Shown: in pieces, positions 45,984-56,144 of the stretch
How the letters are laid out: each line of letters begins with the position of its first letter
Position numbering within the stretch: the first letter of the stretch is position 1
IMG/VR virus record: IMGVR_UViG_3300002895_000002
Location: 96,001-160,000 of that record
DNA: 64,000 bases
Reading direction: 5' to 3' (one strand)
Origin: a virus
Lineage: Duplodnaviria > Caudoviricetes
Notes under the pieces: model-generated
What the model saw: the letters and a program-made list of their open reading frames with translations, nothing else
What the model was told of the DNA's origin: nothing
Databases searched by the model: none
Position numbers and translations under genes: made by a program

Positions 45984-46013
45984 TTGCATAGAATGAATTC
46001 CAAGGAGAACTGA

Positions 46014-46988
46014 ATGGCTATCATCATTGACAGCTCACACCTACTCGCCCGGTGCGTGCATGGCGGAAGAAAAGAGATTCTTGAGCGACCGGAGTATGCA
46101 GCTCACATGCTCTTCAACTCCATTCTCATGAACTCCCGGAAATTTGGAGCGTCAAAAGAGAATCCGGTTATTATGGCCCTTGACACCAAGCCATACTGGC
46201 GGTCTAAGTATTATGTCGAAAATAAGGATCAGTTCGTTGAATACCGGACCAACCCTAAGTATCAAGCATACAAAGGTCAGCGGGAAAAGGACGATACCTT
46301 ACCATGGGAAAAAATCTACGAGGTGGCTAATGCCTGCTACGCTGCGATTGAACAATATTCCGATTTCCATGTTGTTGGAGTCATTGGAGCAGAGGCCGAC
46401 GATATTATCGCTGTCGGAGCAAATCACTTCTCAGAAAAAGGACAACCTGTCACTGTCGTATCTTCCGATAAGGACTTCCAACAACTCCACAGACCAGGAA
46501 GAGGAGTCCAAGTCTGGGATCCAATCAAAAAAACCTTCAGACCAGACATTGACCCGGAGTATTACAAAAAGTTACACGCGATCTCTGGAGATCCCGGAGA
46601 TAACATTCTCCCTATCAAAAGAGGAGCAGGTCCAAATACAAAAACAGCTGAACGATATGCTCGAGACCTCGATACTTACCTTGCTACAGACGCAGAGCTC
46701 AGAGATCGTTACAAATTCAACAGAACACTCACAGACTTCGATTATATTCCCGTTGAAGTATCCAGTCGCATAGTTGAGGCGATTGAGAACCATACCTACT
46801 CATTCTCTGCAATGGACTTGATGAAAGTTTTCATTAAATACAGGCTCAATGCAATTGGTGAGAGAGTTCAGGAGTTTCGCCTTCCTGAGAAGACACAAGT
46901 CAAAACCAGCACCAGTGCGAAGGTATACAAGGAAGCCGCAAAGCAACAGCAGGTACTCAACAACACATTGGAGGATTTTTTCGGCTAA
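46014..46988 (+). CDS. rnh: T4-type RNase H / 5'-3' flap exonuclease
   Basis: IIIDSSHL; YWRS; YKGQR; AEADDII; SSDKDFQQL; GDPGDNI. Confidence 0.92.
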   Translation: MAIIIDSSHLLARCVHGGRKEILERPEYAAHMLFNSILMNSRKFGASKENPVIMALDTKPYWRSKYYVENKDQFVEYRTNPKYQAYKGQREKDDTLPWEKIYEVANACYAAIEQYSDFHVVGVIGAEADDIIAVGANHFSEKGQPVTVVSSDKDFQQLHRPGRGVQVWDPIKKTFRPDIDPEYYKKLHAISGDPGDNILPIKRGAGPNTKTAERYARDLDTYLATDAELRDRYKFNRTLTDFDYIPVEVSSRIVEAIENHTYSFSAMDLMKVFIKYRLNAIGERVQEFRLPEKTQVKTSTSAKVYKEAAKQQQVLNNTLEDFFG

Positions 46989-47167
46989 CAACGACCTAGA
47001 ATCCAACCTTCAGGTTGAGTGTTTTCATTATATAACCCACATTCTTTGTTATATGGATTATTATACCAACGTTTTCCTGAAGGTATTCCTTTGTTATGTG
47101 CTGGTCTTCCTTTTCGTGTATTTTGATTCTGTTCGATGATACGGTCGTAGATAGATTGATAATCCAT
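46985..47167 (-). pseudogene. Internally deleted HNH homing endonuclease (60 aa mini-element)
   Basis: MDYQSIYDRIIEQN (matches the MobE-like HEs) fused directly to a NKG..WYNN..PEGWILGR tail; no HNH motif. Confidence 0.8.
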
Positions 47168-47178
47168 GACAGTTCCCC

Positions 47179-47269
47179 TATAAATAGATGTGACAGGGAC
47201 AGCAGGGAAGTTCCCCTCTCCGTTGGTTGTGGTGGTCAGACCCAACCTTACCTGTTCCCTTTTATTTAT
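47179..47269. ncRNA. HE-associated three-way-junction element, copy E5
   Basis: GGAC AGCAG[GGAAGTTCCCCTCT]CCGTT GGTTG T GGT[GGTCAG]ACC CAACC TTACC. Confidence 0.75.
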
Positions 47270-47297
47270 CAAATCCCATGAAAGGTATAGAAATAAT

Positions 47298-47483
47298 ATG
47301 AATGTGATGTGTAACGCAGATCCCAAGACTAGACCTAGACATTGTTGTCAACGCACCAACCTTTGTTGTGTTTTCTGTCTCAAGATTAAAGACTGTTTTG
47401 CTGAAGCAGAAGCATGTAAGATTCAGAAACCATGTGACGCGGATTGTAACACTGTTGATGATCCGTGTCCGTTCGCAATCTGA
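47298..47483 (+). CDS. Small Cys-rich protein (61 aa)
   Basis: HCCQRTNLCCVFC..DC..CKIQKPCDADC..PCP. Confidence 0.55.
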   Translation: MNVMCNADPKTRPRHCCQRTNLCCVFCLKIKDCFAEAEACKIQKPCDADCNTVDDPCPFAI

Positions 47484-47491
47484 GGTGAGCC

Positions 47492-47614
47492 ATGGAAGAT
47501 CTCAATAAATGTTGGTCCTGTGGACAGGAAAATCAGTCTGGGGATTCTGTTTGTGTCCGGTGCGGTAAGATCACTAAAGAACCTGGGATATTTGACAACC
47601 CTGTGAATGGGTAG
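47492..47614 (+). CDS. Zn-ribbon micro-protein (40 aa)
   Basis: GAGGTG RBS; CWSCG..CVRCG. Confidence 0.55.
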   Translation: MEDLNKCWSCGQENQSGDSVCVRCGKITKEPGIFDNPVNG

Positions 47615-47626
47615 TAAACTGTATTC

Positions 47627-48652
47627 ATGGCACTCGACCCGTATGATGAAATGCAGTTGGTATATCGGATAAACCTCCGGAACTTGAGAAAAGTCCCAAA
47701 CGGTTACATCTTCTCATGTCCTATCTGCAACGAGGGTACGCACCCCAATAGAAAGAGGGGTGCTATCCTCGGTCCCGTTGCAAACAAGCCCTACACAACC
47801 GTTCTTTGCCATAACTGCAATCCAGATGGGATGTCTTTTCGTCGGTTTGTAGAGACAGTCGACCCAATTCTCTTCCTCGAATACCAACGTCTTGAGAAAG
47901 AGCAGTTCATTAAGGATCTCAAAGAAGGAAAGATCAATAAGAAGCAAAAGATCATTGACAATGTAGCTCCAGTTTATGATGAGGTTAGCTTCTACAAGCT
48001 CAACCCCGATACCTTCGTTCAATGCACGGATAATCCGGCAGCATTCCAGTATGCTCACTACCAACGGAAGATCCCAAGAAATATCATCAGTGAGTTGATG
48101 TATTGCCCTAAGAAGACTATCAACGGAAGGCCCAATCCTTTCTATGACATGCTGATCTTCCCTCTGTATAGTGAACAGATCAAAGGCTACCCGATTGATG
48201 CACATGTTCATGGGTTTCAGGGTCGAAGCATTAGGGGTGAGAAACGGTTCTATACATTCAGTAAGAACGAAGCATTCAAAGTGTACAACCTTTTTCGGGT
48301 AGATCGTCGGAAGGATGTTTACATTTTTGAAGCAATCATAGACTCCCTTGGCATTCCCAACTCGGTTGCTGCTCTGGGATCGTCCATGAGTGATCGGGTC
48401 AAGGACATGCTCCCTAAGCGGGTGTGGTGTTTGGATAATGACGACACTGGATATAAGAAATCTCTAAAGCTCGTTGAACAAGGCGAGCGGGTCCTTATCT
48501 GGCCTGAGGAGATCAAAGCTAAGGACTTCAACAAACTGGTAGAAAAGGGTGTATCCCACCAGCAGTTGACACGTCTGATAGAAGAATATACAATGGAAGG
48601 GATCAAAGCAAAAGTTCATCTTGAACTGAAACTATCAAAAAAGAAGAGGTGA
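47627..48652 (+). CDS. gp61: DNA primase
   Basis: FSCPICNE..CHNC Zn finger; FQGRS; VYIFEAIIDS TOPRIM; LDND; KDFN. Confidence 0.93.
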   Translation: MALDPYDEMQLVYRINLRNLRKVPNGYIFSCPICNEGTHPNRKRGAILGPVANKPYTTVLCHNCNPDGMSFRRFVETVDPILFLEYQRLEKEQFIKDLKEGKINKKQKIIDNVAPVYDEVSFYKLNPDTFVQCTDNPAAFQYAHYQRKIPRNIISELMYCPKKTINGRPNPFYDMLIFPLYSEQIKGYPIDAHVHGFQGRSIRGEKRFYTFSKNEAFKVYNLFRVDRRKDVYIFEAIIDSLGIPNSVAALGSSMSDRVKDMLPKRVWCLDNDDTGYKKSLKLVEQGERVLIWPEEIKAKDFNKLVEKGVSHQQLTRLIEEYTMEGIKAKVHLELKLSKKKR

Positions 48653-48951
48653 TGAAGATGCCAGCGTATGATTTTTACTGCTCGCAGTGCAACAAAACGT
48701 ATGAAATCAAGATGACCATGTCCGAACACTCCGAACAGAAGGACAAAATGACCTGTCAGGAATGCCACCAACCCCTCAGTCAAACCGTATCTCCACTCCG
48801 GTTTACTCTCAAGGGCTCTGGTTGGTATGCTGATGGGCCTGGAAACAACTCGAACGGTTCTGGATATGGTGTAACTCAACGTGAGATGGACAAGAATGGG
48901 GATCTCACGAAAGGGATGGAAGACGCTATGATGAATGCTCCTCCCGAGTGA
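48649..48951 (+). CDS. FmdB-family Zn-ribbon protein
   Basis: MPAYDFYCSQC..CQEC..FTLKGSGWY. Confidence 0.85.
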   Translation: MMKMPAYDFYCSQCNKTYEIKMTMSEHSEQKDKMTCQECHQPLSQTVSPLRFTLKGSGWYADGPGNNSNGSGYGVTQREMDKNGDLTKGMEDAMMNAPPE

Positions 48952-48998
48952 TAAATATCCAGCCCCAAGAAACGAACCAATCGAAAGGAATACCTTCC

Positions 48999-49862
48999 AT
49001 GTCTCAATTTTCCACCACTGATTTCTTTCTAACAGATTTTCAACGGCTCATTTGGGCCGATAACTATCGGGATCCCCAACATGATCCGACGGTGGAAGCA
49101 ACATTTCGACGAATGGCTGCAACAATCTTCGCCAATGAATCTGAGGAGCTCCAGCAGGAACTCTTTGATCAACAACTCATGGCCAAGATCTTCTTCGGTG
49201 GTCGCGTGTATAACCTCGGTCGTGGCCTGAAGAACGTCAATGCTTTCAACTGCTATGCGGCTCAGCGGTCCACCATGCCAGTTGACTCCATCTCCAACAT
49301 CTTCGCTGATATCACCAATGCAGCGGAGATCCTGAAGACCGAGGGCGGCATTGGGTTCAACTTTAACCACATCAGACCGAAGGGTACTCTCATCAAGGGC
49401 GTCGGTGTTGGTACTCCGGGTGTCCTGGCTTTCATGGAGATTCAGGACAAGACCGCCGATGTCATCACCCGTGGTTCTACCGGTGACATTATCCAGGCCG
49501 ACGAGAATACTCCGACCAAGAAGAAGATCCGCAAGGGCGCTCAGATATCCCTGTTGGACTGCCGCCATCCGGAAATCTTCGCCTACATCGATGCCAAGAA
49601 GATCCCCAACCGGTTTGTTTGGTTCAACATGTCGGTAATTATTACGGACCGGTTTATGGAAAGATGTTTAGAAAATATAAATAAAATAGTTATTGAACTA
49701 AATGATGGAACAAAACATGAACTAGACCCCAATGAAGAAATAGAAATAGATGGGGTTATAATGACAGCGAAGGAATATAAAGATGGGTGTGAAAATAATG
49801 CCACCAAAAGACGAATTTATCAAGATGATAAAACAATCAGTTCTTCTGAAAGATGTAGCTGA
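48999..49862 (+). CDS. nrdJ: Class II ribonucleotide reductase, fragment a
   Basis: FFGGRV; AFNCY (redox Cys); GGIGFNF; RKGAQ; FNMSV; AT-rich non-RNR tail after ~49665. Confidence 0.88.
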   Translation: MSQFSTTDFFLTDFQRLIWADNYRDPQHDPTVEATFRRMAATIFANESEELQQELFDQQLMAKIFFGGRVYNLGRGLKNVNAFNCYAAQRSTMPVDSISNIFADITNAAEILKTEGGIGFNFNHIRPKGTLIKGVGVGTPGVLAFMEIQDKTADVITRGSTGDIIQADENTPTKKKIRKGAQISLLDCRHPEIFAYIDAKKIPNRFVWFNMSVIITDRFMERCLENINKIVIELNDGTKHELDPNEEIEIDGVIMTAKEYKDGCENNATKRRIYQDDKTISSSERCS

Positions 49863-50695
49863 ATATTATAAAGTAAGCCAACAATCAATAATTAAATGGA
49901 TGAAAAAATATAACATCTATGATGAATTTAATTTTAAGCGTAATGTTGGTAAAGGAAATCTTGGAAAAACAATAATTTGTTCCGAAGAACTAATAATTCG
50001 ATTAAGAAAAATGGCAGATAATCGGAAAGGACAACCCGGCCATAAAAGAATACAAAGAATAAAGGAAAGGTGTTATATATGTGAACACGAATTTATAAAA
50101 AAAGAATCTGACGAAAAAAAAGTATGTTCTAAAAAATGTGCAATAGTTCTTCGAAGTATTGAAAATATAAAATCTATAAATGTGGTGTGCACATATTGCG
50201 GTACATTTATTGAAAAACCACTGTCTCTCATCAAAGAACATAATTTTTGTGATTATAATTGTTGTAATGCATGGCGAAAAGGAAAAACATATGAAGAACT
50301 ATATGGTGAAGATAAAGCAAATATTATTAAACAAAAAATAATGGCAAATAGATCAGAAAATACTATTATGGTTCTTACTCGTCCACATATCAAACTCAAA
50401 AAATGAAATGATTTCTAATGGGTTATATGATGGATTCCAAACTTCAAAGAAAATGTATCAATTTGAAATAGATGAATATAATCATGATTTACAATTATGT
50501 TTAGAAATTGACGGCGATTATTGGCATAATTATCCTTATGGAACACAACAAGATAAAAGGAAAAATACATTTCTTGCTAATAAGGGATTTACTGTATTAA
50601 GAATATGGGAACATGATATAAACACTAATTTGGGTGGTTGTATTGAAAAAATTAAGGAGACTATTGAATGCTTAAGCTCTCAAGCAAAGAAATAA
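49783..50695 (+). mobile_element. Vsr/DUF559-like homing endonuclease inside nrdJ, +1 frameshift
   Basis: Zn fingers CxxC; EIDEY..LEIDGDYWH..DKRKN..GFTVLRIWE; the two ORFs join if the A6 run 50398-50403 loses one A; late promoter at 49676. Confidence 0.8.
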
Positions 50696-52209
50696 AGAAC
50701 GTAAGAAATGGTGGTGACTGGGACCTGTGGTTCCCTGACATCAAGCATCCCGAGTACGACAAGCTCTGGAAGGGTGACTTCGATGCATGGGAAGCTGCCG
50801 GTCTTCCCAAGGTCATCTATCAGACCATCAAGGCACGGGAGCTCTGGGATAAGCTCATCCAAAACACCTACACCAGGAACGAGCCAGGCATTCTCTTCAT
50901 CGACAATGCCGAGAAGAATAACAACCTCACCAGGTACATGAAAGTGACGGGTGTGAACCCCTGCGGCGAGATCCTGATGTGTGCTGATCCTGGCATCGTG
51001 GAGATCGACGGTGTTATCTATGAGTACCTCGGTGACATCTGTAACCTCGGTGCTATCAACCTCACCCAGTTCTTCACCATCGAGAACGGCTTTGCCTGGG
51101 ATGCTTTCAAAGAGTCCGTAGCAGTGCTCGTCCGTGCTCTGGATAACGTCATCGACATCTCTGGGTATCCGCTGGAGAAGATCAAGAACGCCGCCATGCT
51201 TCGCCGTAAAATCGGCTGTGGTGTCATGGGATACGGCTCGTTGCTCTTCATGATGGGCTTCAAGTACGGCTCCCAGAAGGCCAACGAGTTCACCGAAGTG
51301 CTAATGAAAGAGTACGCCAATGCTGCATATCAGGCATCGGCCATGCTCGCCAAGGAGAAGGGTGCATTCCCGCTCTGGAAACCCGAGATGATCAACGATG
51401 GGTACATCGGCAACTCCGGGATGCTCACCGATGAAACACTGGACCTCATAGCAGCACACGGTCTCCGTAATGCTCAGCTGATGACCATCGCCCCGACAGG
51501 CACCACATCCATCTTTGCCGGTCTCGTCAGCGGCGGTGTTGAGCCGGTCTTCGAGAAGGAGTACACCCGGTGGGTCATCTCCAACCACAGAGCAGAGGAG
51601 CTTCTGGAAGGGCTCGATGCTCCTGACTACCGCAACGGTCAGTTCGTTGAGACGAAGGACTTCAAGTTCTCTATGGCTGGGGATGAGAAGGTCCTAGTGT
51701 CTCTGGATGGCACCCTGATGATCGACCAGAATCATGGCCTTCGCAAGAAAGAGATCTGCGAGGATTACGGTTGGTACTGGGCGAAGAAGCACCGCGATCC
51801 GGATGCCGTGACCTTTGCCAAACGCCTCGGCATCTACAAGACTGCCATGGAGTTGTCAGTCAAGGAGCACATGGATGCATTTAAAGTTATGTCTAAAGCA
51901 GTTGATATGTCAATTAGTAAATGTGTTGATGTTGAAACCACTATGGTCGAAATAGATGGGAAGATTGTTTATCTTGATGAACTGGAATATGGGGAGGAAG
52001 ATTCCTTTGTCCAAATGTCCGGCATGATAAAAAATCATAATCACATTGATGTTCCGATTAAAGCAACATATAATAATGGAATCACCGATGTGGTAGAAAT
52101 AACTTTTTCTGATCGGTCCTCAATCATATGTACACCCAACCACCGGTTATATACCGAAAATGGGTTTGAGCCGGCTATTGAAATTTTGGTAGGAACAAAA
52201 ATTGTGTAA
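50668..52209 (+). CDS. nrdJ: Class II RNR fragment b fused to N-terminal split intein
   Basis: Own AAGGAG RBS; GVNPCGEI; ICNLGAINL; IAPTGTTS; GGVEP; SISK then intein. Confidence 0.9.
   Translation: MLKLSSKEIKNVRNGGDWDLWFPDIKHPEYDKLWKGDFDAWEAAGLPKVIYQTIKARELWDKLIQNTYTRNEPGILFIDNAEKNNNLTRYMKVTGVNPCGEILMCADPGIVEIDGVIYEYLGDICNLGAINLTQFFTIENGFAWDAFKESVAVLVRALDNVIDISGYPLEKIKNAAMLRRKIGCGVMGYGSLLFMMGFKYGSQKANEFTEVLMKEYANAAYQASAMLAKEKGAFPLWKPEMINDGYIGNSGMLTDETLDLIAAHGLRNAQLMTIAPTGTTSIFAGLVSGGVEPVFEKEYTRWVISNHRAEELLEGLDAPDYRNGQFVETKDFKFSMAGDEKVLVSLDGTLMIDQNHGLRKKEICEDYGWYWAKKHRDPDAVTFAKRLGIYKTAMELSVKEHMDAFKVMSKAVDMSISKCVDVETTMVEIDGKIVYLDELEYGEEDSFVQMSGMIKNHNHIDVPIKATYNNGITDVVEITFSDRSSIICTPNHRLYTENGFEPAIEILVGTKIV
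51922..52209 (+). mobile_element. Split intein N-part (95 aa)
   Basis: Starts CVDVETT after SISK; block B CTPNHRLYT; ends EILVGTKIV-stop. Confidence 0.88.
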
Positions 52210-52223
52210 ACATAACCATCTTA

Positions 52224-52265
52224 TATAAATAGATATACTCATATTGACAAAGAGGATCTATTTAT
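52224..52265 (+). promoter_or_regulatory. Late promoter plus inverted repeat occluding the HE start
   Basis: ataaatagat/atctatttat arms; the 3' arm overlaps ATG 52264. Confidence 0.6.
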
Positions 52266-53346
52266 GCGAAATGTTGTTAAAAACACAATTCATCGATGGA
52301 ATAAGACGATGGATTTATCGCAGTATTCCATCGATGAATTGGAGGAATTCTTACAAAAAAAATTATATTGACTTTCCGAGAAATGTTAGGTATAATATAG
52401 GAAAGTGGATTGGTTCAGGGAAACCATTATCTGATTATTCTATTGCCGCAGCAGCACAACATCGGTCTGTCTTTTCTACTACCTATATTGCAGAGAAAAA
52501 TAAAAGGTATATAGAAAGTCTTCCGGAAAATGAAAAAAAGATACGGTATAAAAAATCATGTGAGAAGGGGCAAATAACACGAAAAGAGAGACACGGTTCT
52601 ATTTCCGAATCTTATCGTAAAGGGTTAATCCTAAAGGGCCAACGAACCGCATTACTATTAGGAATAACCGACACATTGTCTGATACTGAATTATTGTCTT
52701 TATCCGGTTACCAAAAGAAAAATAATTACCAGTTATTAACGGAAAGTGAAAAAGAGAAAAAAAGAATAGCCTGGAAAAAACAAATCTTAAAAATACCAAT
52801 GTGTTTGAAATCATCATTTCAGAATATCCCATTTTTTCAACCGTCGATGTGAACCAGTTGTCGGATGAAGAAATAGAAACCTGGTATAGATGTTACCGAT
52901 CAATAATGTCTATTAGAAGAATGAACAATAAACATCATTCTTATGGGAGATCAGGTCATTATTATTCTAGTAAAACACGAAAGAAACATTATTACAGATC
53001 ATCATATGAATTGAAGTTACTACAAATTCTAGATGAATTTGAATTTGTGATCGATTATATGACAGAACCGTACCACATTACATTAGACATAGGAAAAAGA
53101 TATGTTCCCGATTTTGTGATTGAAACTAAAAATGGTCGAATAGTAGTTGAAGTAAAACCAACGTTTAAACTAAAAGAATTTCTCGAATCTAAAGGTTATC
53201 AATTATTTTCTCAGCTATCCAATTTCGTTATTATGACCACCGAAGAAATAGACCAAGGAGAAGAAAATGTCAGATCCCAGATTGTTGAATATACAAAAAA
53301 CGTCAGATCGCATACCAGCGAGCTACAGATCAGAAAAAACGATTGA
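52264..53346 (+). mobile_element. TnsA-like PD-(D/E)XK homing endonuclease between split-intein halves, two frameshifts
   Basis: YRSSYELK..RYVPDF..VVEVKP; continuity needs -1 at A8 52355-52362 and +1 at A6 52775-52780. Confidence 0.75.
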
Positions 53347-53542
53347 AGATATAAAAAATGACCTTAATTCACTAAATTGGGATGATGTAACCAACCAACA
53401 TTTATTTAACCTGCGGGCTGTTATTTTTCCTCAACCGAAAACTGTAACTGGAATTCGTATGGTTGGAAAAAAACAAACCGGGGACCTAGAAATAGATCAT
53501 CCATCACATTCTTATTATGCAAATGGTGTACCTACTCATAAT
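53267..53542 (+). mobile_element. Split intein C-part (92 aa, long N-terminal extension)
   Basis: TGDLEID..SYYANGVPTHN followed by Thr+1. Confidence 0.88.
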
Positions 53543-54268
53543 ACAGTGAACCTCCCAGCTGATTATCCATATGACGATTTTGACAAACTCTTCAGGGATG
53601 CATGGAAGAGCGGTGTACGGGGTATCACTACCTACCGTGAAGGCACCATGACAGCGGTCCTCGAGACCAACAAGAAGAAGGACAAAGAGACCAAGAAGGC
53701 CAAGGAAGAGCTGAAGGACTTCTACGAGGAATGGGAAGGGCATGAGGACGGCCGTGTTCGCATAGACGATGTCCAACTTCCGTCCGAGTACCCCATGACC
53801 GGTTTCAAGATCGTCTCTGAAGGCCGCAAGTGGTACATCTCCGTTGCGTTCAAAGACAAAAAGATGACCAAGCCGTTTGGCATCTTCGTCACGACGAATC
53901 ACCGTGAAAATGACGTGAAAACGTACTCTGCTCTTTCGGCCATGGAGCAGTTGGCTACTGAAGCAGGCATCCTTGAGCGGATTATCGAGGACAATCGTAA
54001 GAAGTATGCTGGCCAGACCAATATCAATAAGCTGGCTCGGACTATCAGCCTTCTGTTGCGACACAACGTGGACATCGCTCTCATCGTAAAGACCCTCGAT
54101 GCTCTCGATGACATCCCGGTGTTCTCATTCATCTACCGCATCAAGAAGTTCCTCACCAAGTACATCACCGAGATGGAGAACGGAATGAGTTGTCCTGAGT
54201 GTGGTGAAACGTTGATCTACACCGAGGGATGCATCAAATGCTCTCAGTGTGCATACAGTAAATGCTAA
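53267..54268 (+). CDS. nrdJ: C-terminal split intein fused to class II RNR fragment c (TSCPD-like domain and Zn ribbon)
   Basis: AAGGAG RBS; THN|TVNLP; AWKSGVRGITTYR; CPEC..EGCIKCSQCAYSKC. Confidence 0.9.
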   Translation: MSDPRLLNIQKTSDRIPASYRSEKTIEDIKNDLNSLNWDDVTNQHLFNLRAVIFPQPKTVTGIRMVGKKQTGDLEIDHPSHSYYANGVPTHNTVNLPADYPYDDFDKLFRDAWKSGVRGITTYREGTMTAVLETNKKKDKETKKAKEELKDFYEEWEGHEDGRVRIDDVQLPSEYPMTGFKIVSEGRKWYISVAFKDKKMTKPFGIFVTTNHRENDVKTYSALSAMEQLATEAGILERIIEDNRKKYAGQTNINKLARTISLLLRHNVDIALIVKTLDALDDIPVFSFIYRIKKFLTKYITEMENGMSCPECGETLIYTEGCIKCSQCAYSKC

Positions 54269-54279
54269 GACGAAAAAGA

Positions 54280-54321
54280 GAAAATGGCGGGTTCTATAAA
54301 TAAGTAGAATCCGCCATTTTC
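54280..54321 (+). promoter_or_regulatory. Long hairpin with late promoter TATAAATA in the loop
   Basis: gaaaatggcgggttcta/tagaatccgccattttc. Confidence 0.7.
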
Positions 54322-54339
54322 TATTTTTTGGAGAATATA

Positions 54340-54624
54340 ATGAGCAAGTTTGTCGTACTGTTGGAGCAGGTTCTCAATGAATCCCCAACCACCTATGAGC
54401 GACTGGTATCAAATGCCATCGAGAGCAAGAAGAGTAATCCTTCTGCTCCTGACTCTGAGCATATGAAGCATGTTGCTGGTGCAGACAAGGATCACAAAGA
54501 TCTTGTTGCTGCCCATCTCAAAGGTGATAAGGCCGTTGTGAAGGGTAAGATCAACATGATTTCAGGCAAAGGCCGAGTATGGAGCGACCACGCAGAAAAG
54601 CTCCGTGGAATTCTGGGGGTGTAA
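54340..54624 (+). CDS. Hypothetical late protein, possible internal head protein
   Basis: MSKFVVLLEQVLNES N-terminus; late promoter. Confidence 0.6.
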   Translation: MSKFVVLLEQVLNESPTTYERLVSNAIESKKSNPSAPDSEHMKHVAGADKDHKDLVAAHLKGDKAVVKGKINMISGKGRVWSDHAEKLRGILGV

Positions 54625-54625
54625 C

Positions 54626-55042
54626 ATGAATAACTTCACTCGTCTTCTCGAAACCATCAACGAATCATGTCAGGGGCCAAGTCAGCTCCCTCTTAACAGT
54701 GAAGGGAAGCTGGAACTGTACAACCCGGATTTCTATCGCCGCCATGGTCTTGATCAACATGCTGAACTGATCACTAAAGCCAAGGAATATCAGGGTAAGA
54801 AGAAAAACCTGGAACAGAGGAAGCAGGCCCATAACGAGTTGGTTCTTCTTTATCGGAATGTTGGAAAGGCAGGGGGAGATCATCACGCTCTAGCCAAAGC
54901 AGTGCTCCATTACGCTGGACACACCGACATCCATGACAATCCGTCCACGATGACCAATCAACACCTCGAAGACCTCAAGAAGGATCCAAGCAAGTATGGT
55001 ATGGATCATCGGGTTGCTATAACCCACGCGAGGTTCAAATAA
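54626..55042 (+). CDS. Hypothetical late protein, possible internal head protein
   Basis: MNNFTRLLETINES N-terminus. Confidence 0.6.
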   Translation: MNNFTRLLETINESCQGPSQLPLNSEGKLELYNPDFYRRHGLDQHAELITKAKEYQGKKKNLEQRKQAHNELVLLYRNVGKAGGDHHALAKAVLHYAGHTDIHDNPSTMTNQHLEDLKKDPSKYGMDHRVAITHARFK

Positions 55043-55237: not shown

Positions 55238-56144
55238 ATGTTTATAATAGAACCAAAAAAGACTAAGTCGAATAAAAAAGTAGCAGATTATACTAGGTGT
55301 GAGGTTTCCTGTGACAAATGTGGTAAAGAATATAATAGTAGCTATAAACAGGTTACTGATGGTAGACTAAAATATCAGGTTGATTTATGTCGAAGTTGTA
55401 GACAGATTTATCAATATGAAAATGGAATTAGAGATAATCAAAGAGCTTCAATTAGTAAAAATGGAAAGGTAAGACGTATGAAGAAGTATTAGGGATTGAA
55501 GGTGCAAAAAAGCGAAAGAGAAATTGAAATCTTATACTGGCGAAAAATCATCAAATTGGGGTGGAACATGGCATGGCAGTAGAGAGAAAGCGGATCAACG
55601 AAATGCTAGTATAAAAGGTAAGACTATTATAGAGATATACGGTGAAGAGAAAGCAGAAACAATACGAAAAAAATTAGGTGTACCTGGCTCTCGAAATGGA
55701 CAATTTGGAAAACCGGCACCTACAGGATCCGGGAATGGGTGGTCTGGATGGTATAAAGGGTTCTTTTTTCGGTCATTATTGGAATTATCTTTTTTGGTAT
55801 CAATGATGAAACAAGGAAAACACATCATATCCGCAGAGAGTAAAGAATTTAGAACAGAATATACAGATTGGGAGGGAAAAAGAAGAAATTATTTTCCAGA
55901 TTATGTAATTGACGGAATTGTTTATGAAATCAAACCTAGTGGATTAGTGAATACTAAAACTAATAACCTAAAATTCAATGCTGCTAGAGAAAAATTTGGT
56001 ACGGAAAGATTTATCATTCTCACAGAAAATGATGTTGATAAAATATCCGATTCTACAATAAAATTCTTGTATGATAATAACGAAATAAAGTTTATTCAAC
56101 GATATGAAGAAAAGTATAAGGAGCGTTATGCCGAACTTTCTTGA
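55238..56144 (+). pseudogene. Zn-ribbon plus TnsA-like homing endonuclease, two -1 frameshifts
   Basis: CDKC..CRSC; FRSLLEL..RNYFPDY..YEIKP; frames join by adding one A at 55457-55461 and one at 55506-55517; late promoter at 55211. Confidence 0.75.

Follow-up and report, generated by a model that had tools for sequence, protein, structure and literature searches.

A class II ribonucleotide reductase gene in three pieces in a 213-kb phage genome, with one split-intein break and one intein-less break

Introduction

How could a gene that is broken twice, each time in a different way, still give one working enzyme? This question is raised by a ribonucleotide reductase (RNR) gene, nrdJ, in a stretch of phage DNA of 64,000 nucleotides (nt), here called the window, which comprises bases 96001-160000 of a 213,116-bp IMG/VR virus record (IMGVR_UViG_3300002895_000002; Caudoviricetes) that CheckV rates as 100% complete. 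The gene lies in three collinear and non-overlapping open reading frames (ORFs) at positions 48999-49862, 50668-52209 and 53267-54268 of the window. We call its pieces a, b and c, and the two inserts cassette 1 (between a and b) and cassette 2 (51922-53542, between b and c). RNR is the enzyme that phages have most often opened to selfish elements.

Both kinds of break that are found here were already established, as an earlier note on this DNA had pointed out. Fractured genes with split inteins have been described for NrdJ-1/2, and also for NrdA-1 to NrdA-7 and gp41-1 (Dassa et al. 2009, PMC2677866), and the same work reports an SbcD-like gene that was split without an intein by a Vsr-like endonuclease and holds inserted segments of 25 and 9 amino acids (aa). 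In phage Aeh1 the class Ia gene nrdA is split by an endonuclease gene without an intein (Friedrich 2007; Crona et al. 2011, PMC3045599), and the resulting NrdA-a/NrdA-b is fully active and depends on the tails that come from the element (PMC3045599). Some RNR genes hold several introns and inteins, and the class II nrdJ-a and nrdJ-b of Thermus phage phiYS40 are cited as two consecutive intein-less ORFs, 12 nt apart (PMC3653736).

Three pieces of a class II reductase

We regard it as highly probable that the locus is a single class II nrdJ with two different breaks in it. There are no stops or frameshifts in the nrdJ exons, which have a GC content of 50-54%, against 27.9% in the first gap and 33.6% in the second, so that the gaps stand out as AT-rich. 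The extein parts of b and c, which exclude the intein, are 418 and 241 aa long. The earlier note, made from the letters of the DNA, had described three nrdJ ORFs, each with its own Shine-Dalgarno site and start codon, with two unrelated homing-endonuclease (HE) genes between them, with split-intein halves at the second break and with neither intein nor intron at the first. This anatomy is as described: the coordinates, the AAGGA(G) sites and the ATG codons are all there (Table 1), and the gene in the first gap (HE1) is of the DUF559/Vsr-like type while that in the second (HE2) is a TnsA-like PD-(D/E)XK nuclease. One correction is that both nuclease genes are broken by homopolymer frameshifts in this genome.

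The same note had assigned the gene to class II, and by its sequence the locus is an adenosylcobalamin-type RNR of this class (NrdJ), an assignment backed by the NrdJ_Z equivalog, the active-site residues, the absence of nrdB and the cysteine-rich C-terminus. The NrdJ_Z model TIGR02504 is matched collinearly, from 17 to 213 in a (98.7 bits), 205 to 583 in b (261.5) and 566 to 601 in c (33.6), and Pfam PF02867 likewise, with model positions 9-159 in a and 122-497 in b. A relative in one piece from a protein collection, P0152, passes the equivalog cut-off of TIGR02504 (427.9 bits vs 399.95). The best solved relative is NrdJ of T. maritima (1xje), to which a corresponds at 137-233, b at 253-524 and 567-594, and c at 597-637. 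The motifs NPCGE (Asn, thiyl-Cys, Glu) and ICNLG (second redox Cys) of b align with N320, C322, E324 and C333 of T. maritima, and the FNC motif with Cys85 in a is the first redox Cys, its equivalence to C134 of T. maritima being given by motif position only. A C-terminal cysteine-rich domain, as in piece c, is described for most class II RNRs (PMC5704485). In the whole 213-kb genome there is no match to PF00268 (NrdB/F) and no second RNR.

Table 1. Features of the nrdJ locus; positions are those of the window
Feature	Position	Strand	Details
Shine-Dalgarno site of nrdJ-a	48984-48989	+	AAAGGA; ATG 48999 9 nt downstream
nrdJ-a, whole ORF	48999-49862	+	287 aa
nrdJ-a, native part	48999-49664	+	222 aa; first redox Cys (FNC, Cys85); 50.8% GC
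Cassette 1	49665-50709	+	AT-rich (27.9% GC) mobile insert in place of 24 nt (HAVEADDT) of the one-piece allele
NrdJ-a C-terminal tail, cassette-encoded	49665-49862	+	65 aa and stop; CLENINK...ERCS; net charge -6
HE1, N-terminal (DNA-binding) part	49783-50406	+	207 aa; cut by extra A in A6 run 50398-50403
HE1, nuclease domain	50408-50695	+	95 aa; DUF559/Vsr-like; +1 frame, one base past stop of N-terminal part
Shine-Dalgarno site of nrdJ-b	50654-50659	+	AAGGAG; within 3' end of HE1; 8 nt to ATG 50668
nrdJ-b with N-intein, whole ORF	50668-52209	+	513 aa
NrdJ-b N-terminal head, cassette-encoded	50668-50709	+	14 aa, MLKLSSKEIKNVRN; net charge +3
nrdJ-b, native part	50710-51921	+	NPCGE from residue 97, ICNLG from residue 124; last letters VDMSISK
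N-intein (IntN)	51922-52209	+	95 aa and stop; Cys1 (CVDVETT), block B (CTPNH); net charge -11
HE2, TnsA-like PD-(D/E)XK homing-endonuclease gene	52264-53346	+	three frame segments; start ATG 52264
Shine-Dalgarno site of C-intein-nrdJ-c	53255-53260	+	AAGGAG; within 3' end of HE2; 6 nt to ATG 53267
C-intein with nrdJ-c, whole ORF	53267-54268	+	333 aa
C-intein (IntC)	53267-53542	+	92 aa; N-terminal extension of about 55 aa and canonical core ending ...ANGVPTHN
nrdJ-c, native part	53543-54268	+	241 aa; +1 residue Thr (TVNLP); C-terminal cysteine-rich domain CPECG...CIKCSQC...KC
Terminator-like hairpin	54279-54322	+	19-bp stem and T run, directly 3' of nrdJ-c

Relatives in one and two pieces

A DNA search of GenBank gave no close phage relatives, RNR identity there being below 40%, and an IMG/VR scan with the b extein gave only two loci, 38% identical. 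We compared contigs of four metagenome runs (X1-X4) from four studies, of freshwater sediment, groundwater, biofilm and activated sludge, over the locus. The contigs of all four contain a close relative of this nrdJ, 86-97% identical, that lacks both inserts and is one piece of 868 aa. P0152, of the same length, matches all three pieces in order: residues 5-221 of a correspond to its residues 3-219 with 93% identity, 18-422 of b to 227-631 with 97%, and 93-333 of c to 628-868 with 94%.

The relatives give the two sites in their empty state. At the first, all four contigs jump from 49658 to 50718/50719 and have 23-24 other letters instead, which read RFM-HAVEADDT-WDLWFP. At the second, three of the four (X2-X4) jump from 51911 to 53543 by way of ten letters that complete ...VDMSISK-TVNLP, and in the fourth (X1) exactly 1621 nt are absent, from the TGT at 51922 to the AAT at 53542; P0152 and another protein, P0153, likewise read SISK-TVNLP across this site. 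Because the empty site is exact to the base, the second insert extends from Cys1 to the terminal Asn of the intein, and as 1621 cannot be divided by three, the two intein halves are read in different frames, which excludes a contiguous intein by read-through.

One of the one-piece contigs, L007 (57.7 kb), is syntenic with the window, with genes for a RecA-like protein, DnaB, a 5'-3' exonuclease, a 341-aa protein and a zinc-ribbon protein before nrdJ and a DEAD_2 helicase gene farther downstream of it, as in the window. A search with piece a gave in addition a protein of 286 aa (P0266) that is 95% identical to NrdJ-a, tail included. It comes from contig L009, where nrdJ is in two pieces: a, then an intact gene for a Vsr-like endonuclease of 289 aa, and then b and c as one protein of 659 aa without an intein. 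Near-identical genes in one, two and three pieces, with base-exact empty sites, thus form a natural allele series, a clean system in which to study how a radical enzyme withstands fragmentation. This series, and the finding that the rescuing tails are part of mobile cassette 1, are the main additions made by our analysis.

The nrdJ exons are 86-95% identical to those of L007 and L009, while the genes directly upstream (compared over 46000-54300 of the window) are only 67-73% identical. These identities suggest that the nrdJ region has been locally exchanged between otherwise diverged phages, and localized exchange has been reported for nuclease-flanked genes (PMC10448857). Directly upstream of nrdJ in L009 there is also a GIY-YIG/NUMOD3 endonuclease gene on the minus strand (L009:2919-3695), which has no counterpart there in the window.

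The first break: a mobile cassette with a tail and a head

Cassette 1 differs from its copy in L009 at only seven of 1045 nt (0.67%; 99.3% identical), and apart from those seven differences the window equals L009 over 49635-50747. The flanking exons are 10.4% (a) and 6.7% (b) divergent, with most of the differences in third codon positions, and the L009 exons are nearer to the one-piece L007 (96.6-98% identical) than to the window (93%). As a near-identical cassette lies in diverged exons, cassette 1 has moved recently between diverged phage backgrounds, and co-conversion was limited to about 30-40 nt on each side of it.

The mobile tract encodes a stop codon, the 65-aa tail of NrdJ-a, a Shine-Dalgarno site, an ATG and the 14-aa head of NrdJ-b. 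Neither tail nor head is present in the one-piece relatives, and since both lie inside the near-identical mobile tract they are borne by the element; for the tails in Aeh1 mobE such an origin was only inferred (PMC3045599). The border of the cassette is not placeable to the residue, as both ERCLEN in the tail and NVRNGGD in the head can be aligned to HAVEADDT.

The nuclease domain of HE1 matches PF04480 with 39.9 bits (cut-off 20.6), and the best solved relative of the intact endonuclease of L009 is I-Bth0305I (PDB 3r3p; E=0.002), the founding member of the Vsr-like/EDxHD family of homing endonucleases (PMC2677866, PMC3239194). A single extra A splits HE1 in the window: the run of six A at 50398-50403 is a run of five in L009, where the gene is one ORF of 289 aa. 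The two copies also differ near 50525, the intact one (L009:4561-5430) reading DGDYWY and the frameshifted one DGDYWH. Outside the window the same genome has a second gene for a Vsr-like endonuclease, intact and of 270 aa (L006:1483-2295, at about 67123-67935 of the genome), the nuclease domain of which is 33% identical to that of HE1; between the N-terminal parts of the two there is no significant similarity.

The second break: a split intein

Judged from its sequence, break 2 is a canonical split intein that belongs to a conserved family and lies at a classical intein site. The IntN family has eight members, each of which ends soon after block B, and SK|C1, YLDE, YNNG and T..H are invariant in it; C1, T81 and H84 of the present IntN are thus invariant in all eight. 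IntN matches Pfam Intein_splicing with E=2e-4, which is below the family cut-off, and TIGR01445 with 21.2 bits, the cut-off there being 24.5. Proteins in which IntC is joined to c form 12 clusters, 44-55% identical, with H91, N92 and T93 invariant, and all 12 also have the conserved N-terminal extension of about 55 aa (RIPxEYR, VTNxHLFNLR). In 12 homologues this SISK|T site is occupied by a contiguous intein of 331-433 aa. These contiguous inteins resemble IntN and the last 35-45 or so residues of IntC, and have no match to the extension or to HE2. The first 27 codons of the extension (53267-53431) overlap the 3' end of HE2 in another frame.

The locus thus adds a conserved natural family of split inteins, with Thr at +1, an IntN of 95 aa and an IntC of 92 aa with a conserved extension, and it could be of practical use as an orthogonal tool for protein ligation.

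Frameshifts in the nuclease genes

The region 48999-54268 has three frameshifts, all of them in nuclease genes and in homopolymers. The one in HE1 is at an A6 run, and those in HE2 are at runs of eight A (52355-52362) and six T (52832-52837); the ORF at 52801-53346 holds the nuclease core of HE2. An intact homologue of HE2, 391 aa long, is found in contig L010. The frameshifts of HE2 could be decay or sequencing error. In the long open frames of the window there are 51 other homopolymer runs of at least six that are unshifted, a biased count, as the frames were picked for being open; this favours real decay over a general sequencing error.

A possible route to an active enzyme

We propose that homing-endonuclease cassettes have entered nrdJ of the 213-kb phage on two occasions and that the product of the gene is now made as three polypeptides. 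The whole block would probably be one transcript with five or more translation units, since the hairpin that follows nrdJ-c is the only terminator-like one in 48600-54600. Cassette 2 would be a "fractured gene" element, made up of an N-intein, a free-standing TnsA-like endonuclease gene and a C-intein. IntN and IntC are expected to associate and to trans-splice NrdJ-b to NrdJ-c at SISK|TVNLP, and the 659 aa predicted for the spliced protein is the length of the intein-free b+c protein of L009. Cassette 1 would supply the upstream half with its stop and tail, and the downstream half with its ribosome-binding site, ATG and head. NrdJ-a would then bind to the spliced protein without a covalent link and so make the ten-stranded barrel whole, as happens with NrdA-a and NrdA-b in Aeh1. 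In this arrangement Cys85 of a would lie beside two sites of b, the thiyl site in NPCGE and the second redox Cys. One intein-less and one split-intein break require two different assembly chemistries, and if the pieces do assemble, one active site would be built by two different post-translational routes.

The sequences themselves establish the anatomy, the borders, the class, the mobility of cassette 1 and that every catalytic residue is conserved. Trans-splicing, non-covalent assembly, activity of the enzyme and any roles of the tails are in this proposal deduced from the conserved catalytic residues, the conservation of the families and the prediction of the complex. We think that the full model, with trans-splicing of b to c and non-covalent assembly with a, is likely to be right, though with clearly less assurance than we have in the architecture.

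The complex of a with b (residues 1-418) and c (93-333), a prediction that the earlier note had proposed, was modelled with an ipSAE score of 0.85, against 0.01 for the best control; in the calibration of the tool, 51 of 78 solved complexes and two of 108 mismatched pairs came up to this mark. The runs agreed in at least 89% of the contacts, with a predicted local distance difference test (pLDDT) score of the partners of at least 77, and the interface has tail residues 225-264 against residues 1-22 of b. A single-sequence AlphaFold2 model of NrdJ-a was poor (mean pLDDT 38.7), the tail (231-265) being its sole moderately confident part, with four short strands and a helix predicted.

Several observations weigh against this account. 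All the chains in the complex model are parts of a single well-known fold, and the score, which as the tool itself cautions could be an echo of that single-chain fold, speaks for compatibility and not for binding. The ratio of non-synonymous to synonymous substitution (dN/dS) is 0.02-0.055 for all exons against L007 and L009, and is uninformative on selection since the break, because cassette 1 is much younger than the divergence of the exons. Long-term tolerance of the a/b break is not supported by further copies of cassette 1, as only two carriers are known: searches with the intact L009 endonuclease in IMG/VR, and with an exact 30-mer and the protein in the JGI metagenomes, gave one distant partial relative only. 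None of the RNA runs searched contains the locus, and the co-occurrence of both cassettes, like the three homopolymer frameshifts, is known from the assembly alone.

Alternative explanations

The rival that survives best is that the gene is a freshly disabled relic, in which the split intein works while the a/b break kills the enzyme and the phage lives on the deoxynucleotide synthesis of its host until nrdJ has decayed. The youth of cassette 1 (0.67% divergence, against 7-10% in the exons) makes undecayed exons uninformative on this point as well, and the small number of carriers fits the same idea. The break distributes the active-site cysteines over two chains, and its position lacks a long-lived precedent: an insertion or intein at the a/b site is absent from all 296 homologues, the populated positions being around 186, 308-334, 487 and 629. 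Yet Aeh1 NrdA works fully with a break of this type (PMC3045599), and cassette 1 gives a well-placed stop, Shine-Dalgarno site and ATG and a tail and head of opposite charge. It is present in two different phage backgrounds with intact exons in both, the three frameshifts all fall in nuclease genes and none in the 2.6 kb of exons or in the intein halves, and the complex model docks a onto b-c far above the best control. We therefore find the relic unlikely, though it deserves to be kept in mind.

A more specific idea about cassette 1 is that it is a self-contained "gene-splitting module" with an adaptor pair, possibly a degenerate split intein that can no longer splice; we consider this doubtful. 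The pair would be the acidic, beta-rich tail of 65 aa and the basic head of 14 aa, which may rejoin the halves of any essential gene that the element cuts. If so, the cassette would make its own insertion harmless, and if it is indeed a degenerate intein it would be an intermediate between split-intein and intein-less fractures. The coding insert of cassette 1 has Cys first and can be read with Asn last, and excision from Cys to Asn would give RFMER-VRNGGDW, with the native RFMHAVEADDTW length and the conserved Val in register. The segment IVIELNDGTKHELD of the tail matches block B of an N-intein in contig L008 over 23 aa (E=0.009 in a single comparison), and also aligns to block B of the IntN family profile.

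A dead split intein at the a/b site is still a minority reading that we have not adopted. The tail compares to the phage's own IntN with E=0.9 in BLASTP and to the IntN family profile with a probability of 1.4% in hhalign, and it has no match in Pfam at E<=10, inteins included. TxxH is missing in the tail, and the residue after the head is Val or Gly, which is no nucleophile. Tail and head together are 79 residues, too small for the HINT fold. The smallest known mini-inteins have about 120-135 aa.

That the three-piece gene is an artefact, either a chimera of strains with one cassette each or a product of mis-assembled breaks, seems to us very improbable. The record is a metagenome assembly for which no run with the source reads was found, alleles in one, two and three pieces co-exist so that mixed populations are plausible, and A6, A8 and T6 runs are typical sites of sequencing error. 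Against this, cassette 1 is at the same site in the assembly of L009, the intein family with the long IntC recurs in L008, L010 and 12 protein clusters, and the junctions make precise sense as coding sequence. Between the two cassettes, the b exon is 6.7% off that of L009 and hence from another strain, and the 51 other homopolymer runs are unshifted. Lastly, phage RNR genes often contain group I introns that carry homing-endonuclease ORFs (PMC3653736), and Vsr-like endonucleases do occur in group I introns (PMC2677866). Self-splicing introns in the two gaps, with an mRNA joined into one frame, are nevertheless scarcely credible here. Over 48500-54800 there is no match to an Rfam intron family at E<=10, the endonuclease ORFs nearly fill each gap and leave no space for a ribozyme core, the borders of the second gap are to the base the Cys1 and Asn of an intein, and b and c both start from a strong Shine-Dalgarno site and an ATG of their own.

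Comparison with known fractured genes

The b/c break has the same layout as the fractured genes of Dassa et al. (2009): the ORF of the N-extein runs into IntN, a free-standing endonuclease gene comes next, and IntC with the C-extein starts afresh from a further Shine-Dalgarno site and ATG. NrdJ-1/2 (PMC2677866) is likewise from a phage class II RNR, and its acidic IntN, as reported for NrdJ-1, is similar too. It was split next to the thiyl Cys, whereas here the site is SISK|T near the C-terminus, a classical site of contiguous inteins. The endonucleases of the published fractured genes are GIY-YIG or Vsr-like and that of cassette 2 is a TnsA-like PD-(D/E)XK nuclease, and frameshifted; the published IntC are about 40 aa long, in contrast to 92 aa with a conserved 55-aa extension.

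The a/b break is most like that in Aeh1 nrdA-a/mobE/nrdA-b. In both, a free-standing endonuclease gene, with neither intron nor intein, cuts an RNR alpha gene as part of an AT-rich insert and overlaps the gene downstream of it, the C- and N-terminal tails are derived from the element, and the active-site cysteines are shared out over two polypeptides. Aeh1 has a class Ia enzyme and this phage one of class II, with no NrdB. The break in Aeh1 is between the thiyl Cys and the second redox Cys, and here it follows the first redox Cys and precedes the thiyl Cys. The endonuclease mobE is of the HNH type while HE1 is Vsr-like/EDxHD, so cassette 1 is outside the mobE cassette family. The tail is here 65 aa and predicted to be structured, and the activity demonstrated for Aeh1 is here a predicted one.

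The SbcD-like split and I-Bth0305I (PMC2677866, PMC3239194) share with cassette 1 the family of the endonuclease, the intein-less fracture and the inserts on both sides. The inserts of the SbcD case are 25 and 9 aa and those of cassette 1 are 65 and 14 aa, in another host gene, and unlike there, one-piece and two-piece alleles together with a near-identical second copy demonstrate that the inserts travel with the element. For phiYS40, the citation describes no endonuclease cassette between the class II ORFs, where this phage has one of 1.05 kb.

The earlier note had also proposed a search for similarly split nrdJ genes, and this brought out that nrdJ in three or four pieces with several split inteins recurs in metagenomic phages. 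In L008, which is syntenic at about 50% identity (L008:2072-9408), the gene is in four pieces with three split inteins, including the SISK|T intein with the long IntC. Two of the endonuclease genes there are intact (312 and 340 aa), while the third is degraded to a truncated remnant of the TnsA-like type. Another of the inteins of L008 looks atypical, with an IntN of roughly 165 aa, as estimated from the translation of piece 2, and a short IntC ending ...ILNVD|CGE, with Asp for the terminal Asn. L010 (413-7981) and L011 come from a phage that needs TGA to be read as W, and have four nrdJ pieces and three intervening presumed endonuclease genes, according to gene calls and Pfam only; their protein is found on at least 24 contigs. 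In P0030 a middle piece of nrdJ stands between an IntC and an IntN. L008, L010 and P0030 have the same SISK|T split-intein family as the window. The breaks are bounded by split-intein halves in L008 (all three), in P0030 (both ends) and, by gene calls only, in L010 and L011, whereas here one of the two is without an intein.

In the literature and the sequence collections that we searched there was no gene with one fracture that lacks an intein and another that has a split intein, and no class II example of an Aeh1-type fracture with an endonuclease cassette. The novelty that the earlier note had seen in the combination within one nrdJ is in so far borne out, and it was over-rated in that each of the two mechanisms is published and nrdJ joined from three or four pieces by several split inteins is frequent in metagenomic phages. 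The locus would be the first class II RNR that we have found with an Aeh1-like intein-less fracture. Going by the sequence comparisons above, it is also the first case where the rescuing tails can be seen to travel with the endonuclease cassette instead of evolving locally.

A third gene in the window that resembles those of homing endonucleases lies at 55238-56144, just upstream of the DEAD_2 helicase gene. It combines a zinc-finger N-terminal part with a TnsA-like nuclease and is in two frames (ORFs of 84 and 206 aa), and an intact homologue of 246 aa is found at L008:9475-10215.

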